In this document: in pieces, positions 6,386-47,793 of the stretch
Position numbering within the stretch: position 1 is the stretch's first letter
Layout of the letters: every line of letters starts with the position of its first letter
Source: an uncultured virus (IMG/VR IMGVR_UViG_3300023210_000012)
Taxonomy: Duplodnaviria > Heunggongvirae > Uroviricota > Caudoviricetes
Direction: 5' to 3' (one strand)
DNA: 56,751 nt
IMG/VR virus record: IMGVR_UViG_3300023210_000012
Position numbers and translations under genes: made by a program
Notes under the pieces: generated by a model
Database searches by the model: none
What the model was told of the DNA's origin: nothing
Seen by the model: only the letters and a program-made list of their open reading frames with translations

Positions 6386-6810
6386 AAGGATCTCCCCGTA
6401 GTAGCTATTGATGCTTGGTTAGAGAGGGGGTTCAGGCAGTTGATGCTTAAGCTATCAGACTTCACAGCGCCCCTCACGACTCAGACATGATACTCCCCGA
6501 CGACACCGAACGCGGTGAAGTTGCTAAGGAGAAATCCCAGTCGCTAGATCGGTCTTATACCGACGAATGGCAGTAGCGAAATGAAAGATTTTCGAGAAGT
6601 TTTTGATATCAGAAGTGAGGTGTTTTTCACAATTTTCTGAATCTCTACTCACGCTTGATCTCTTAGTCCCGCTGCCGCCCTCAAGGAATATCACCCCCTC
6701 GCGGTCCGCGTCAAGAGTTCATTATGAGATCAGCGGCAACGCCTTTCAGCTCGGTGAGATGACTTAGTGCGTCGTAAAAACGAGCATCGATAGCTCAGCC
6801 TACCAAGTGA

Positions 6811-6825
6811 TGAGTCTGATAGAAT
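6811..6825 (+). promoter_or_regulatory. Putative extended -10 promoter (TGAGTCTGATAGAAT)
   Basis: TGn+TAGAAT about 35 nt before the ATG at 6860; identical 15-mer at 22149-22163. Confidence 0.55.
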
Positions 6826-6859
6826 ACCTAGAAGTTACGACCACCCTGCTGGAGCAGTT

Positions 6860-21999: not shown

Positions 22000-22186
22000 A
22001 TGCTATGCGTCCTCGATTCCCCTACTTTCCAGCCAGCTGATGTATATGCAGGTCCACCTCGGTGGCCCTGTCGAGTTCGACGGGACTTGGGCCACTATTG
22101 TCATCTACGGGATTGAAGTGGACGAATAGAAGTATCGAAGAAGGTGGGTGAGTCTGATAGAATCCTATGATGCGTAAGGATGGGAC

Positions 22187-28265: not shown

Positions 28266-28838
28266 TCAAATAGAAGCTCCTGGGACCCCTGGGACCACTG
28301 GAGCATTTGGAACACTGGGGGGTCCTGGGATCCCTGGGAGAACCTCTACCTGGTGCACAGACACGGTTAAGCTCTCGATCGATAGCTCGCTGGAACTGGC
28401 ATCAAAGTTAGAAGACGGCTGCCAGCTTTTAGGGACGCACCCAAAGAGATTGACGACCCGCCTGGGGATGAGCTTGTCAGCTCTCGTGTGGACCACAGTG
28501 AAGTTACGCCGGGGCGCCCCTGTTCCCCACACTGCCTGGAAGAACCACAGATAGAAGTCCATTGAGAGCGGGGTCACAGCAGCCTCGATAGTCGTATCTC
28601 CTGTTGTGATCTGTCCTGTAGGAATTTGGTGTGCATACGGCCAGTTTCCCTCCTGAATCGTCTTCATCCCCATTGATACGGATGGAATTGAGATGGACTT
28701 AAAGCTCAGTAGCTGTCCCTCTGAAAGTCCCTGGCCGATTTTGAATGGGAACGCTACTGGAGGGCTTGCCGCGACTGGAATGTCTAGCAGGTAATAGGAG
28801 AAGTTCTGTAGGGGATCGGTGCTGAGCGCTCTGGCCAC
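28266..28838 (-). CDS. Tail tube protein (T4 gp19-like), paralog 2
   Basis: TDPLQNFSY, IQEGN, FYLWF, FDASSSELSIESLTV. Confidence 0.82.
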   Translation of the reverse strand: MARALSTDPLQNFSYYLLDIPVAASPPVAFPFKIGQGLSEGQLLSFKSISIPSVSMGMKTIQEGNWPYAHQIPTGQITTGDTTIEAAVTPLSMDFYLWFFQAVWGTGAPRRNFTVVHTRADKLIPRRVVNLFGCVPKSWQPSSNFDASSSELSIESLTVSVHQVEVLPGIPGPPSVPNAPVVPGVPGASI

Positions 28839-28890
28839 GGGGTTAACCTCCGGTGTGCATCACATCAATGAGTCTATCAGATTCGCCCGC

Positions 28891-29606: not shown

Positions 29607-29631
29607 CCAATTGGGTCTAGATACGGGGCGT

Positions 29632-30759
29632 CTAGTTGACGACCAGTTCCACGACTATCTTCTTGGCGTAGTAGTTGATGAGGCTATGACTCACGCCTAG
29701 TTCTTCTGCCAGCTGCTTCTGATTCAACCCTGCAGCGAGCTTCGCTGGAATAGACGCGATCTGCTCTTTAGTGAGCTTCGCGTTGCCGTGCTTCTTGATG
29801 AGATTCGGCAGGTCCCAACTCTCACCACGAAGTACACGAGATATCTGGGTAGGAGTCACGCCATAATCTGCGGCCAGGCGCTTCCCGGTTACTCGCTTCC
29901 CTGAGTCCAATCCCTCTTGATACCGCGCACGGATCCTCGTGACCTGCTGGTAATCCAGCTTCGACATCCCGTGCTTGGCGCCGCGAACCCGGCACTCAGG
30001 CTTAGTGTATGCGCCGTTTTGCGGCCCGCGTGCGGCTCGACTAGGATCCCTCCGCATGGGATGGCTCTCACCTCGTAGAACCTTCTCCGGATGCCTACGC
30101 GTCCAGTGGTCATCGCCAGTGGGCGCCGTCTGACCACCAGAGGCATCGTTTGCAAGAAGGTTCAATCCTATTGAACTAATGTGCTCGACTTCGAGCTTGA
30201 GCGCTTTGGACTCGGTGAGGTTCTCGGCGATCCTATGCTCAACGGGCTTGAGACCGGCCGCAAGTAGCTTGCGGATGATCGCGAACTTGTGCCCCTTCTT
30301 CCCGGACTTAGCCTTCCGGATGTGAGCGTCAACTCGTGGTTGCTGACGATCTGACCCCTTGCCCACGTAGAACACATTGTCGGTGTCTGGCCGGATCAGT
30401 TCGTAGACGTAGTAGACCTCTGCTTTGTCCAAATATGGCGAGTTGGGATCGGTTTTCTGGTGGACACGAGGCCGAGTGGACCCGTAACGGGAGAGCTGAA
30501 CTCCGTGCTGTTCCCGTAGCTCGTTCACCAGCTTCTTAGCTGCATTTACGTGCAGATTCTCGGCGATAGCTAGGTAGCACAAACTAAGGCCTTGTTCGAC
30601 CAAGCGTCTGACCACTAAATGACGTTTGCTGTTACCGCCACGCCTTGTATCCGACAAAAGCCTGTTGAGCGCGTATCGGCCGTTTCCAGACTGCTTCTCT
30701 CGGCCAACGTAAATTACTGCGCCATCAATTGGATTCTTGATAACTACGACTCTGTACAT
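29632..30759 (-). CDS. Free-standing GIY-YIG homing endonuclease with NUMOD/HTH DNA-binding repeats
   Basis: YYVYELIRP...FYVGKG, a second degenerate N-terminal GIY-YIG, RGESHP and RGAKHGMSKL repeats, C-terminal HTH. Confidence 0.85.
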   Translation of the reverse strand: MYRVVVIKNPIDGAVIYVGREKQSGNGRYALNRLLSDTRRGGNSKRHLVVRRLVEQGLSLCYLAIAENLHVNAAKKLVNELREQHGVQLSRYGSTRPRVHQKTDPNSPYLDKAEVYYVYELIRPDTDNVFYVGKGSDRQQPRVDAHIRKAKSGKKGHKFAIIRKLLAAGLKPVEHRIAENLTESKALKLEVEHISSIGLNLLANDASGGQTAPTGDDHWTRRHPEKVLRGESHPMRRDPSRAARGPQNGAYTKPECRVRGAKHGMSKLDYQQVTRIRARYQEGLDSGKRVTGKRLAADYGVTPTQISRVLRGESWDLPNLIKKHGNAKLTKEQIASIPAKLAAGLNQKQLAEELGVSHSLINYYAKKIVVELVVN

Positions 30760-30802: not shown

Positions 30803-30834
30803 CTATGCCCGAATCAAGGTAGAAACCTAAGTCT

Positions 30835-31317
30835 CTAGTTGACAACGAGTTCCACGACTATCTCCTCGACAGCGAGGGTGATCTCCTGGATGGCGACGTC
30901 GGAGCTCGAAGCGTCCTTGTCACCGGTCGGCTTGACAGAGGTCGGGAAGACCTCCTTGAGCTGAATGACCTTCGAGGGACTACCGTCAATGCCCCATTCG
31001 TCGGCAATGTGGTATTCCTGGATCGTGATGTCAGAACGGTAGGTCTCACCGCCGTTGATGCACTTGAAGATCCAGAGGAGGAAGTCGGAGTCCTTCTTGA
31101 CCACGCCCTTGCTCAGGGAGCAATCACCGACCTTCGGAATGCCAGGATACTTTCGGGTGTACTTGAACACGCCCTCACGGTACTCCGCCATGTCGACGGT
31201 GAGGTCGGGGATGCTGGCGGTCCGGAAGCCTGCAACTGGGTCCAGGTTCTGACCCGCCGGGTCGACAACGTGAAACCGGAAGTTGTGATAGAGGTCTGTG
31301 TCAACTGCTCTAGCCAT
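30835..31317 (-). CDS. Tail tube protein (T4 gp19-like), paralog 1
   Basis: NFRFHV, EYREG...RKYPG, LSKGV, DASSSDVAIQEITLAVE. Confidence 0.9.
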   Translation of the reverse strand: MARAVDTDLYHNFRFHVVDPAGQNLDPVAGFRTASIPDLTVDMAEYREGVFKYTRKYPGIPKVGDCSLSKGVVKKDSDFLLWIFKCINGGETYRSDITIQEYHIADEWGIDGSPSKVIQLKEVFPTSVKPTGDKDASSSDVAIQEITLAVEEIVVELVVN

Positions 31318-31342
31318 AAGGGTTTATGCTCCTGTTCATACC

Positions 31343-32176
31343 TTAAAAAAGGCGAACGCCTGATCCCTTTAGGACGCGAGCGTCCCAAATCTCGAACGGA
31401 ATGTGGGGATACTGTTGGCAGAAGAGTTCGATTTTCTCCTGCTGCCCAGTGGGCCACCATCGGCCCTTGACGTCCACAACAGCCTCCAGCTCTCCGCACG
31501 TTGCGTAGATCCAAAAGTCTGGCGTGTAGGTGGCGACACCATCATCTACGATGACTGTGTATTTAGCTTTTTCGTAGTCCCAAGACTTCCCAAGCAGGTC
31601 CAAATGCTGGGCAACTCGTAGCTCCCAGAGAGACTTGAATGTGAAGGCGCGACCGCAGTCATCAGTCCACGTGTGGAAGCCAGGGCGTTTCCTAATCTTC
31701 GCTCCCATACGCCTGAGCTCGACGAGAATGCGCTTGTGGAAGACGTCAAAGTCTTCAGCAATAGCGCCTGCCGTCTCTCCGGCCTCATACCGATTCTTAA
31801 CGCTCTGCAGCTCAGTCGCAGAAAGCTCTCGCTTTTTGTAGCGCGTTTGGGTTCCCGTCCTTTTCAGGATCGAGGAGATCGCTGACTGGCTTGTATTCCA
31901 GGTTCGGGCTAATCCGACCTGAGTCTCGCCCTCCAGGTAAGCATCAATGATCTGGTCTTCTTGATCGTCCGTCCATCGCCGGTTTCGACAGCCAGTCACA
32001 TCGCGGCACACGCCTGCGGTATGGAGTACCTTGTAGACCTGGTCAACTCCTACATCAAACTGCAGAGCGATTTTAGGACCAGATAGGCCGAGCTCATAGA
32101 GACGCACCGCTTCGGTCCGCTGCTTGGAATCCAAGCTGCGGCGCCGCTTGCGCTGCTTCTCAACTGCTCTGGCCAT
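31343..32176 (-). CDS. Putative free-standing endonuclease: three HTH repeats plus a PD-(D/E)XK nuclease domain
   Basis: Repeats LYELGLS, AYLEGET, RYEAGET; FKSLWE...YE...YTPDF...DVKG. Confidence 0.8.
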   Translation of the reverse strand: MARAVEKQRKRRRSLDSKQRTEAVRLYELGLSGPKIALQFDVGVDQVYKVLHTAGVCRDVTGCRNRRWTDDQEDQIIDAYLEGETQVGLARTWNTSQSAISSILKRTGTQTRYKKRELSATELQSVKNRYEAGETAGAIAEDFDVFHKRILVELRRMGAKIRKRPGFHTWTDDCGRAFTFKSLWELRVAQHLDLLGKSWDYEKAKYTVIVDDGVATYTPDFWIYATCGELEAVVDVKGRWWPTGQQEKIELFCQQYPHIPFEIWDARVLKGSGVRLF

Positions 32177-32203
32177 GTCGTCTCCTGTGACAGATGCTCG
32201 TGT

Positions 32204-32235
32204 TGTGCATCACCACAACTGAGTCTAACAGAATC
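32204..32235 (-). promoter_or_regulatory. Putative promoter shared with the second tube gene (28854-28884)
   Basis: GATTCTGTTAGACTCAGTTGTGGTGATGCACA versus GAATCTGATAGACTCATTGATGTGATGCACA. Confidence 0.6.
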
Positions 32236-32252: not shown

Positions 32253-32777
32253 TTACCGCCGCGCTTTCGGAGATTCCCTGTTCCACTTGGTCCAGGTCGA
32301 CTTAGACCCGCTTGTAGCGCCAAGTTTGCGGATCATTTCCACGAATTTTCTGTTGCAGAGGGCGCTCAACCCTTGTTGGGGAGTCCTATTCCGCCTCACA
32401 AGACTGATCGCCTCTTCAGGTCCCATGTGGGTCGCTTTCATCAACGTAAGAGCCGTCACCAACCCAGAGCGATTGAGGCCCATGTTGCACGACGACACGC
32501 ACCCTTTCCCCTCGCGTAGAGCAACCGCGAATCTATCCGAGAAATGACTGGCTAATTCTCCAACTTTTTTCAACTCATCATCATTTGCAGCGTCATTATC
32601 GTCGTACCCGCCCCTAAGTAGTTCGTAATGATTATTTGGATCAGTCGGCTGAAACTCCTGCGCAAATAGACCGATTAGATCAACTTCTTTATTAGGGCGC
32701 TGAAGGAGGGCTTTAACGTCGTTCTTATCCCCCTGCCAAATACGACCACCAGACCTATGCGTGTAAATGAGATTCAT
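32253..32777 (-). CDS. Dual-specificity / tyrosine phosphatase family protein
   Basis: CX5R loop CNMGLNRSG, then AISLVRRNR and LCNRKF. Confidence 0.85.
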   Translation of the reverse strand: MNLIYTHRSGGRIWQGDKNDVKALLQRPNKEVDLIGLFAQEFQPTDPNNHYELLRGGYDDNDAANDDELKKVGELASHFSDRFAVALREGKGCVSSCNMGLNRSGLVTALTLMKATHMGPEEAISLVRRNRTPQQGLSALCNRKFVEMIRKLGATSGSKSTWTKWNRESPKARR

Positions 32778-33318
32778 GCGGTTTATGGACTATGGCTGTA
32801 AGGTATTAAAGGGCGCATCAGAGGTAAGTACCGCGAGCAGGGGGCCAAGGGCGTTGGCAACAGACAGGCGACTTTTGTTCATCGAAGCTCTTCGCAGATC
32901 GTCTAACAAACCGGCGAGGCGTCGTCGCGGGTCTGCTCGTTGCTATGGTCCCCCATGTGAGATTCCAGATTGCACGGGCCGCACCGTCGGAAACAAACCT
33001 TACTGTCTCGATCATGTAGTAATGATGCCCTATGCAGCCAAGATACAACGTCGGGAGGAAGCACGCGAGGAGGAGATCATAACTACGACACCTCCTATCG
33101 ACGGTTATGTAGCCCAAGACCTACTCGGTGCGATCCAACTTAATCAGTCATCAATCCCGGCGCTCTCTAGGGATCTACGCGTTCCACATGATGTAGTGGA
33201 GTGGCTCGTATACAGATTGGTGGACGCAAAGATAGTCACCATTCGCCGGTCGAAGCGGAGCGTATACGTTAAGTTGGTTCCGAAAGCAGTTCCACGACCA
33301 TCGGGAGGATCTCTCTAG
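32767..33318 (+). CDS. Hypothetical protein with a Cys/His zinc motif and winged-helix-like C-terminus (start uncertain)
   Basis: CEIPDC...YCLDH; SIPALSRDLRV...LVYRL. Confidence 0.5.
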   Translation: MRFMRFMDYGCKVLKGASEVSTASRGPRALATDRRLLFIEALRRSSNKPARRRRGSARCYGPPCEIPDCTGRTVGNKPYCLDHVVMMPYAAKIQRREEAREEEIITTTPPIDGYVAQDLLGAIQLNQSSIPALSRDLRVPHDVVEWLVYRLVDAKIVTIRRSKRSVYVKLVPKAVPRPSGGSL

Positions 33319-33550
33319 TAAACCACTCGCCACGGTGGTGCCACCTACTGAACAGCCTGTGAAGCTGGAGCTCTGTTGTCCCCGCCGCTTGATCCGCGAT
33401 AACGGAACCAAGAAGTCGTAACTGGCAATCAGATCCCGTCTGAAGCGCAACTACGCGAGCGTTAACCGAGCTTGTCGTGAACCCCACTTTGATGCGGCCC
33501 GTCTCAGTATTTTCTATGAAATAGACCTTGGTTCTAGTATGAGAGGGCAT
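33269..33550 (-). CDS. GIY-YIG (T5orf172/MUG113-like) domain protein
   Basis: VYFI...IKVGFT...LQTG...LHRLF...RGEWF. Confidence 0.8.
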   Translation of the reverse strand: MPSHTRTKVYFIENTETGRIKVGFTTSSVNARVVALQTGSDCQLRLLGSVIADQAAGTTELQLHRLFSRWHHRGEWFTREILPMVVELLSEPT

Positions 33551-35169: not shown

Positions 35170-35397
35170 CTACGAAATCGGCCCCGGAAGATCGAATCTT
35201 CTATTTCTAGGGAAGAATCTAGGCTTCAGCCCTGTAGTCACCAGGGAGGGAAGCACTGGGGCGCCCTTCAGCCATCGGAAAGGCGCACTGGGGCGCGGAG
35301 TCTGAGCCGCCCCCTTCGTCCAGAGGAATGGAGCACTAGGGCGTGGTGTTTGTGCTGCCCCTTTCGTCCAGAGGAATGGTGCGCTTAATTCGGCCAC
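35170..35397 (-). CDS. 75-aa protein built from 16-residue tandem repeats
   Basis: SAPFLWTKGAAQTPRP twice plus SAPFRWLKGAP; DNA copies differ mainly at third codon positions. Confidence 0.7.
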   Translation of the reverse strand: MAELSAPFLWTKGAAQTPRPSAPFLWTKGAAQTPRPSAPFRWLKGAPVLPSLVTTGLKPRFFPRNRRFDLPGPIS

Positions 35398-46677: not shown

Positions 46678-47793
46678 ATGCAGAAAGTGCTTCCACTTAG
46701 GATTGCCAACGACGCTGATCTTATGGCAACAATTGAGTCATTCAGACTCATCCAAGAGCGCGTGTCTGAGATTGCGTTTGAAGACGGAACCGCGCTTTCC
46801 GCAGTAGATATGCATCAGCTCAGCTACGCAAAAGTGAAAGGCTCTCTGAAATCTCAGCTCACATGCACTGCTATTCGATCGGTGGCATCTGAATACTCAC
46901 GCGCTCGGAGGAGAAACCGGAGGATATATGGGCCGATTCACTTCAGTAAGCCACGCGCCCTATTCTTGATCGGCAAGGCAAAGCGCGATGCCTGCCCACC
47001 CCGTAAAGAGACGATCAGAATTTGGACAATTGCGGGCCGTAAGGACATACCTTGCAGCATTCCAGCCCGGTTCGAGGCTGACTATAAAAACGTGAAGTCC
47101 TTCGACACACTCGCGGTCTCCCTTAAAAGGGGACGACTCGTAGCGACCGTGTCCGTGACTCTTAAAGAATCAAAACGAGAAGGAACCCTTCCTGCTGGCG
47201 TTGCAGTAGGGAGTAAGAATGAAGTAGCAGCGGTAAGCGCCGAGGGGAAATCTCTCCGAATCGTCACCGTTGCTCAGAATGTAATGGAGGAGACAAGCCG
47301 AAAAACAAAGAGAAGACTTGAGCGGCGACTGGCTGTGCGTAAGGCAGATGGACTTGAGACGCGTTCTGTGCGTCGAGTCCTCAAACGGCTAAGCAGACGG
47401 CGTCACATGCGAACTAGGACTTTTTGCCACGCAGCAGCTAACCGACTCGTTGAGTGGGTTGGAAGCGGATCAATCCTCGTCATCGAGGACCTTCGCATCC
47501 CTCCACCTTCGAAGAGGAAAAGAAGCAAGCCATCGATGAGGCCGCACTTCTATGAAGTGCTTCGTCGTAGGATTGAAGAGAAGGCTGCGGCTGCGGCGAT
47601 ACCGGTTTATTACGTGAACGTATCCGGTAACGAGAAGAGGTGCTCGCTTTGTGGAGCTTCTGGGAGCATCACAAAACACACCTTCCTCTGCGATTCGTGT
47701 GGCAACGAAAGTCCGATGAGCAAGAATGCCGCGCTCAATGTCAGGAACAAATTTACGGTCACCAGGCCGTGGGCTGCTGTTAACCGGCCTTGA
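46678..47793 (+). CDS. tnpB: TnpB (IS200/IS605) family protein, predicted nuclease-dead (TldR-like)
   Basis: RuvC-I GVAVG (D to A176), RuvC-II LVIEDL intact, CSLC/CDSC zinc finger, RuvC-III SKNAALNV (D to S348). Confidence 0.85.
   Translation: MQKVLPLRIANDADLMATIESFRLIQERVSEIAFEDGTALSAVDMHQLSYAKVKGSLKSQLTCTAIRSVASEYSRARRRNRRIYGPIHFSKPRALFLIGKAKRDACPPRKETIRIWTIAGRKDIPCSIPARFEADYKNVKSFDTLAVSLKRGRLVATVSVTLKESKREGTLPAGVAVGSKNEVAAVSAEGKSLRIVTVAQNVMEETSRKTKRRLERRLAVRKADGLETRSVRRVLKRLSRRRHMRTRTFCHAAANRLVEWVGSGSILVIEDLRIPPPSKRKRSKPSMRPHFYEVLRRRIEEKAAAAAIPVYYVNVSGNEKRCSLCGASGSITKHTFLCDSCGNESPMSKNAALNVRNKFTVTRPWAAVNRP

Follow-up and report, generated by a model that had tools for sequence, protein, structure and literature searches.

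The tail tube gene in the window, by which we mean the whole 56,751-nt stretch of uncultured-virus DNA analysed here, has been entered at its 5' end by a gene for a 277-aa nuclease. The join lies within codon 6 of the ancestral tube gene: the nuclease frame continues from the former tube ATG, with the former upstream box and RBS ahead of it, and a spare start downstream keeps the tube gene whole. The best reading of this arrangement, with a probability of roughly 0.75, is that the element homes without an intron and exchanges the 5' end of the tail tube gene for one that it carries. The window is part of a 134,749-bp single-contig genome present in seawater runs. The minus-strand gene order is a phosphatase-like gene, the nuclease, the tail tube gene, a GIY-YIG/HTH gene and, two genes further along, the tube paralog. 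The features are as follows, all on the minus strand:

32253..32777, minus: dual-specificity-phosphatase-like gene (PF00782 below cut-off), the conserved left flank
32204..32235, minus: upstream box, originally that of the tube gene (core 32235-32220, TGATGCA at 32212-32206)
32177..32188, minus: original tube RBS and spacer, now the nuclease's, equal at 12/12 nt to the leader of the empty alleles L008 and L010
32160..32176, minus: upstream copy of the tube start, the ancestral first 17 nt, in frame with the nuclease, 16/17 against both the window's tube start and that of L008
31343..32176, minus: 277-aa nuclease gene, with HTH repeats and a T7-endonuclease-I-like PD-(D/E)XK domain
31318..31342, minus: element-borne spacer with a second RBS (ACAGGAG, 31335-31329), conserved in L009 and L011 and resembling no empty-allele leader
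31301..31317, minus: replacement tube start (downstream copy), its first 26 nt identical in the window, L009 and L011
30835..31317, minus: tail tube gene, 160 aa, intact (PF06841, E 2.9e-17)
30834..30866, minus: upstream copy of the 3' repeat, forming the present end of the tube gene; beyond it the sequence does not continue like L008
29632..30759, minus: 375-aa LEM-3-like GIY-YIG and HTH gene, ending in the tube's last residues (PF22945, E 3.6e-9)
29631..29663, minus: downstream copy of the 3' repeat, the ancestral end of the tube gene that now closes the GIY-YIG gene; the DNA beyond it matches that after the tube stop of empty L008 at 78% over 159 nt
28854..28884, minus: second upstream box, before the tube paralog, similar to the first box
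28266..28838, minus: tube paralog, empty in the window; other loci carry nuclease copies here

The tube ORF of the window is uninterrupted, with no intron or intein that houses the nuclease, and the phosphatase-like gene keeps its position in empty and occupied alleles. No paralog of either the 5' nuclease or the GIY-YIG protein was found in their own genome, and the best pairwise score between the two proteins was 22.7 bits, confined to the HTH region. Further along the window are a short T5orf172/MUG113-like gene (33269-33550, minus strand), conserved in relatives, and an intergenic stretch of short tandem repeats with a 48-nt period (35261-35382).

The original prediction held that the nuclease begins with a copy of the tube gene's own start. 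On the minus strand, 32176-32160 and 31317-31301 match at 16 of 17 nt, the sole mismatch being the third base of codon 2, and the proteins begin MARAVE (nuclease) and MARAVD (tube). ACAGGAG precedes both ATGs, at a spacing of 5 nt for the nuclease and 11 nt for the tube. As had also been claimed, the box shared with the tube paralog precedes the nuclease and not the tube gene: it lies 59 nt before the nuclease ATG and is absent from the 25-nt gap between the nuclease stop and the tube ATG.

Relatives of the locus provided an allele series. A total of 23 loci were found, collapsing to 16 distinct ones; L013 does not show its 5' side, so 15 were scored. The nuclease is in frame at the tube start in 3 of the 15 (window, L009 and L011). 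In two others, L002 and L005, the tube start opens a mini-ORF of 11 codons; behind it come a nuclease of 40-45% identity and a tube gene interrupted after codon 11 by a group I intron. The nuclease of L018 lies directly behind the box and its frame is still open, the captured start having been lost; here the intron follows codon 16. Only the last nuclease codons and an intron are left in L020. The remaining 8 have no nuclease (L008, L010, L012, L014, L015, L016/17, L019 and L021), and in 6 of the 15 (L008, L010, L012, L015, L016/17 and L019) the box stands directly before the tube gene, 58-84 nt from its ATG, so the predicted empty allele exists. L008 lacks both nucleases and matches the outer flanks of the window, although it could be a product of precise excision instead of a locus that was never invaded. 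The joint of an excised form was not seen in contigs of 4 of 20 runs, where contigs at that depth prove nothing. GenBank phages gave no tube match and one weak nuclease match, and a genome-contig collection gave one weak locus (L067). Alleles with none (L008), only the 5' (L011), only the 3' (L012) or both inserts (window, L009, L002, L005 and L018) were all found.

The empty alleles also show which copy of the start is the older. The nuclease ATG and the tube ATGs of L008 and L010 are preceded by the same 12 nt, whereas the leader of the window's present tube start matches the empty-allele leader at 4/12 and spare-start leaders in general at 3-5/12, differing by element type. The upstream copy is therefore the original. 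The insertion point, predicted at about codon 5, is refined to a junction inside codon 6. The nuclease did take over the original RBS and start, while the same claim for the promoter would depend on a promoter role for the box.

A second tube start is present as predicted, but it was most likely brought in with the element rather than rebuilt on the spot, because its 26 nt are identical in three carriers despite tube-gene divergence of up to 20%. Between L011 and the window the tube genes are 80% identical overall and the phosphatase genes 55%. Synonymous differences for this pair numbered 85/183 ahead of the nuclease's last 57 codons, 10/49 in those codons, 0/7 in tube codons 2-8 and 65/131 in tube codons 14-160 (Fisher 4e-5 for the two low stretches against the last, with borders chosen after seeing the data). 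The low-divergence tract ends near tube codon 9, again by post hoc borders. Over whole genes, 4-fold divergence was 0.51 for the nuclease and 0.60-0.73 for its neighbours; block-wise identity along the tube gene revealed no long conversion tract. Spare starts are near-identical copies in the window, L009 and L011 (16-17/17) and recoded in L028, L002 and L005. The junction falls at about 17, 19, 21 or 28 nt in different alleles, always before the intron site at nt 33. Taken together, the junction range of 17-28 nt and the intron sites at nt 33 and 48 suggest a cut within the first dozen codons.

These introns are ORF-less group I introns of 302-309 nt in the tube gene, downstream of the nuclease (L002 4699-5000, L005 4698-5000, L020 2332-2640, L033 from 894 and L018 3696-4000). 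They occupy two sites, after codons 11 and 16, and each exon ends in CAT. Of the 11 loci that bear a nuclease or a remnant of one, 5 had an intron, as against none of the 14 others (p 0.009, a generous value since the loci are related). At L005 3801-5450 the nuclease frame reads through the first tube exon (11 codons) and terminates with the first codon of the intron; splicing would give a single 448-aa nuclease-tube frame. P0023 likewise ends in a tube start.

If the start was captured, it should follow the neighbouring gene, and it does so outside the window's own clade. In a second clade (L028/L031), situated behind the sheath gene, the nuclease begins MARAAS, and in L028 it stands before a MARAAS tube. 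The nuclease start of L028 equals that of L074, an empty allele of the same clade, at 19/19 nt; the working tube start of L028 has synonymous changes in codons 2-7 relative to L074 and then rejoins it. L074 and L076 are empty where L028 is occupied, so the nuclease is optional in this clade too. MARAV irrespective of the neighbour, which would have spoken against start capture, was not seen: the L028 nuclease begins MARAAS, and those of L032, L034, L036 and L040 have no tube-like start. These results come from 12 new loci read among 42 loci (L045-L066, weak domain-only matches, were left out) and 17 read among 26 further loci, the remaining 9 being contigs already seen. Of 69 nucleases, 22 begin MAR or MPR, and 16 of those match one of 20 five-residue tube starts, against a MAR start in 0 of 89 HTH-only proteins; the 16 are only supporting because six are close kin and most have no context. 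No viral locus was found for P0005, and the paralog search returned only the window's twin. A quick tree of 75 catalytic domains required 7 start-capture changes, of which 1 was forced by strong branches, and the unresolved tree is compatible with a single origin of start capture. Other family members occupy nearby tail sites (L032 and L036, behind the sheath gene, and L074 from about 6680); two of these have a TTGACA-type element upstream, and one genome (L002/L036) has two members. Distant NUMOD3/PD-(D/E)XK nucleases in L041-L044 (e.g., L043 2369-3953 and L042 2346-4096) lie behind mini-ORFs of about 55-60 codons that resemble, by eye, the start of the downstream phrog_5417 gene, with stop and start overlapping.

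The nuclease has three HTH repeats (residues about 17-54, 70-106 and 120-156) and a T7-endonuclease-I-like PD-(D/E)XK domain (about 180-262). Pfam HTH_7 and Phage_endo_I matched below cut-off (21.4 vs 29.1 bits for the Phage_endo_I-type domain), and a profile of 10 homologs matched T7 endonuclease I (PDB 1m0d) over residues 180-262 with an E of 2.4e-7. When the motif was aligned to T7 endonuclease I, E185, D220 and K237 were invariant in the 10 homologs and D235 nearly so; we take these to be the catalytic residues by assignment from that enzyme. The structure model consists of three three-helix bundles and an alpha/beta domain (pLDDT 80.6), for which a whole-chain Foldseek search gave no clear match (best E 1e-3). 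Among the three carriers dN/dS was 0.07-0.12, indicating purifying selection on the frame. An intact catalytic motif and DNA-binding modules, as required of a free-standing homing endonuclease, thus appear to be present, and the 277-aa protein is predicted to have nuclease activity. T7 endonuclease I shares the catalytic domain and the order of the PD-(D/E)XK motif but has no HTH repeats. It is a structure-specific junction resolvase, and the fact that the nearest solved relative is a Holliday-junction resolvase and not a homing enzyme counts against the homing reading.

The upstream box had been described as promoter-like and shared with the paralog. The sharing was confirmed (core 28884-28869, then TGATGCA), but the box is a near-palindrome, its core having dyad symmetry of the GAGTCT-N3-AGACTC type, and looks more like a regulator site followed by a TGATGC block. 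Judged by this symmetry, it is probably a site for a dimeric phage regulator. It precedes both tube paralogs in relatives, and it recurs intergenically in the window at 32220-32235, 28869-28884, 22147-22165, 6809-6827 and 46735-46749. A box profile gave 16 matches, compared to 3-4 in shuffles, although its top scores are circular because the profile was trained on these sites. The RBS was predicted to be unpaired at 0.70-0.76 for the nuclease and 0.48-0.52 for the spare tube start, the nuclease being better exposed, and no RBS-hiding hairpin was found on the nuclease leader. Since T4 homing endonucleases are kept at low expression according to the available text of PMC2988022, the exposed nuclease RBS counts against the homing reading.

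The tube gene also bears an end-duplicating element at its 3' end, as predicted, with repeats at 29631-29663 and 30834-30866 that are 91% identical over 33 nt, and the two elements belong to different nuclease families (GIY-YIG and PD-(D/E)XK). A GIY-YIG gene follows the tube in 7 of 16 loci. Its end is visible in 6, and 3 of these finish in the tube's last residues (window, L009 and L002); those of L005 and L018 have no tube end, and in L013 a displaced copy lies further on. L010 and L014 have two copies of the tube end and no GIY-YIG nuclease. We propose that the GIY-YIG gene is a separate element acting in this way on the 3' end. Within a genome the 3' copies resemble each other more closely (25/27 and 27/27 nt) than those of the window resemble those of L009 (21/27), so that later conversion, or duplication at insertion, is needed; such homogenisation is not expected if a donor simply brings a foreign end. 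At L013 1666-1975, the GIY-YIG gene is followed by a displaced copy of the tube end and another GIY-YIG tail, resembling a decayed tandem array. The tube paralog has been visited as well: L005 and L009 carry internally deleted 5' nucleases there that begin with the paralog's own kind of start, L010 retains only a nuclease tail, and L017 has a 3' GIY-YIG gene ending in the paralog's last residues.

Under the homing reading, the mobile unit would be the nuclease body, the second RBS and the spare first codons. The HTH repeats would read a site spanning the RBS and the first ~11 codons of the empty allele, the PD-(D/E)XK domain would cut that allele during co-infection, and repair from the carrier would copy the element together with the spare start. 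Carriers would escape cutting: in the window type the insertion divides the site, leaving nearly identical copies, and in L028, L002, L005 and L018 recoding or an intron has altered it. The first entry was probably by a free-standing nuclease before a tube gene, as in L040, and the break would have been repaired homologously towards the tube and illegitimately at the opposite junction. Empty alleles with the nuclease's leader, the prefix that follows the neighbour, the differing junctions, the invariant motif, the introns at nuclease-bearing loci, low dN/dS and the short tract shared by divergent hosts count for this reading, and so do decayed remnants at both paralogs, which are expected of a selfish gene. 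The candidate cut site is narrowed to about 35 bp, and the alleles form a readable series of how a homing gene could invade an essential phage gene of high expression, with no splicing involved, and itself be expressed immediately. If the reading is true, a T7-endonuclease-I-like family would be added to the homing enzymes. For annotation, MAR- starts on such nucleases should be regarded with caution as stolen gene starts.

The closest known systems affect 3' ends. According to the available text of Coughlan et al. 2020 (PMC7282813), WHO elements of Torulaspora/Lachancea also place a homing gene beside, and not spliced from, its host gene, carry a replacement gene end, leave the old end as a fragment and pile up remnants. 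They replace the 3' ~400 nt of FBA1, encode a LAGLIDADG enzyme, have their own transcription and have been shown to cut; in one clade an intron lies at the inferred cut site, a likeness to the intron-bearing phage loci. The phage element differs in affecting the 5' 17-28 nt, in its PD-(D/E)XK enzyme and in that the displaced piece supplies the nuclease start, and its nuclease lies outside WHO elements strictly defined (LAGLIDADG plus zinc finger, FBA1 3' end). The mORFs of fungal mitochondria (Allomyces atp6; Glomus atp6, atp9, cox2 and nad3) bring a foreign gene end and push the native end beyond the ORF; the one in atp9 is GIY-YIG, and the window's 3' element has the mORF layout. As far as the available portion of PMC3630166 goes, however, all are C-terminal, 51-240 nt and organellar, and no gene affected at both ends is described. 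The accessible part of PMC6279837 mentions decayed nucleases flanked by duplicated C-termini of cob and atp6. Mobile pieces that carry a second copy of host coding sequence to replace the native one are also similar, but there the copied exon lies downstream of the insertion and the host start is not captured by the nuclease. Judging by the repeats and the alleles, a displaced native end and a replacement carried by the element appear at both the 5' and the 3' end of the phage gene. By analogy, the phage element is best described as a mirror image of the WHO/mORF 3' design, moved to the 5' end, and a member of neither group.

Among phages, T4 seg/mob and Aeh1 mobE in nrdA are free-standing nucleases beside essential genes, with borrowed host signals and translational coupling; they differ in being intergenic or gene-splitting and GIY-YIG/HNH, and gene-end duplication is not mentioned in the available text of PMC2988022. 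Collaborative homing and HEG-islands (Barth et al. 2023) involve tail genes flanked on both sides by nucleases, one of them PD-(D/E)XK, and a nuclease beside a short first exon and an ORF-less intron, as in L002, L005, L018, L020 and L033 but not the window; the accessible part of that paper (PMC10448857) does not describe gene-end duplication. The presence of nuclease, remnant and ORF-less intron in the same loci bears on the origin of collaborative homing and mobile introns. A literature search, in which subscription papers were little covered, returned no phage gene-end replacement, and the available text of PMC5626475, PMC12724721 and PMC8393795 held no phage case. A broader proposal, which we put forward tentatively and consider somewhat doubtful, is a general phage class of splice-free, gene-start-replacing homing elements built on resolvase-type PD-(D/E)XK nucleases. 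Such elements would take the promoter, RBS and ATG of each gene entered, jump between paralogs via the MAR- start, pair with 3' elements so that both ends of the tube gene could be exchanged and the gene between them carried along, and illustrate stages on the way to a mobile intron (L005).

The main alternative is that the nuclease is an ordinary free-standing HEG that cuts elsewhere nearby, the repeat being the scar of a one-time insertion with no role in spread or immunity. We consider this unlikely but worth weighing. Against it, several different junctions at two paralogs all fall within the first ten codons, and the shared tract ends near tube codon 9. The recoding of spare starts in L028, L002 and L005 also speaks against it, although the window-type copies (16-17/17) are not recoded. 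Introns at codons 11 and 16 are confined to nuclease-bearing loci. The alternative does account for relatives without a tube-like start that adjoin sheath and tube genes (L032, L034, L036 and L040), for 3' copies homogenised within genomes, and for the open nuclease frame of L018 despite loss of the captured start.

A domesticated late-expressed phage function, for instance resolution of junctions or regulation by DNA binding, that is driven by the tube's signals, passed on vertically and occasionally lost through recombination between the repeats, is considerably less probable. The T7 endonuclease I fold, purifying selection and a strong, exposed RBS would suit it, and direct repeats permit clean loss. 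However, the nuclease is missing from 8 of 15 close loci, some of which have other family members instead, is decayed at both paralogs, and is present in divergent L011 yet absent from the closer L008.

Finally, assembly artefact or chance likeness can be practically dismissed: a 16/17 match by itself is not rare (34 same-strand pairs in the window), but among the 31,125 pairs of starts formed by the genome's 250 ORFs of at least 100 aa, only 2 share at least 16 of their first 17 nt, and the same layout in other assemblies and divergent phages, namely L009, L011 and run X5, which is not marked as a source of this DNA and whose contigs span both 5' junctions with zero differences, refutes an artefact. 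The two qualifying pairs are the nuclease/tube pair and one pair of tandem paralogs. The latter (L095 317-1327 and 1370-2512; C1 131816-134011, outside the window) have an identical RBS and first 22 codons, then diverge, and have no Pfam match; as a guess, their shared leader is perhaps capsid-targeting.
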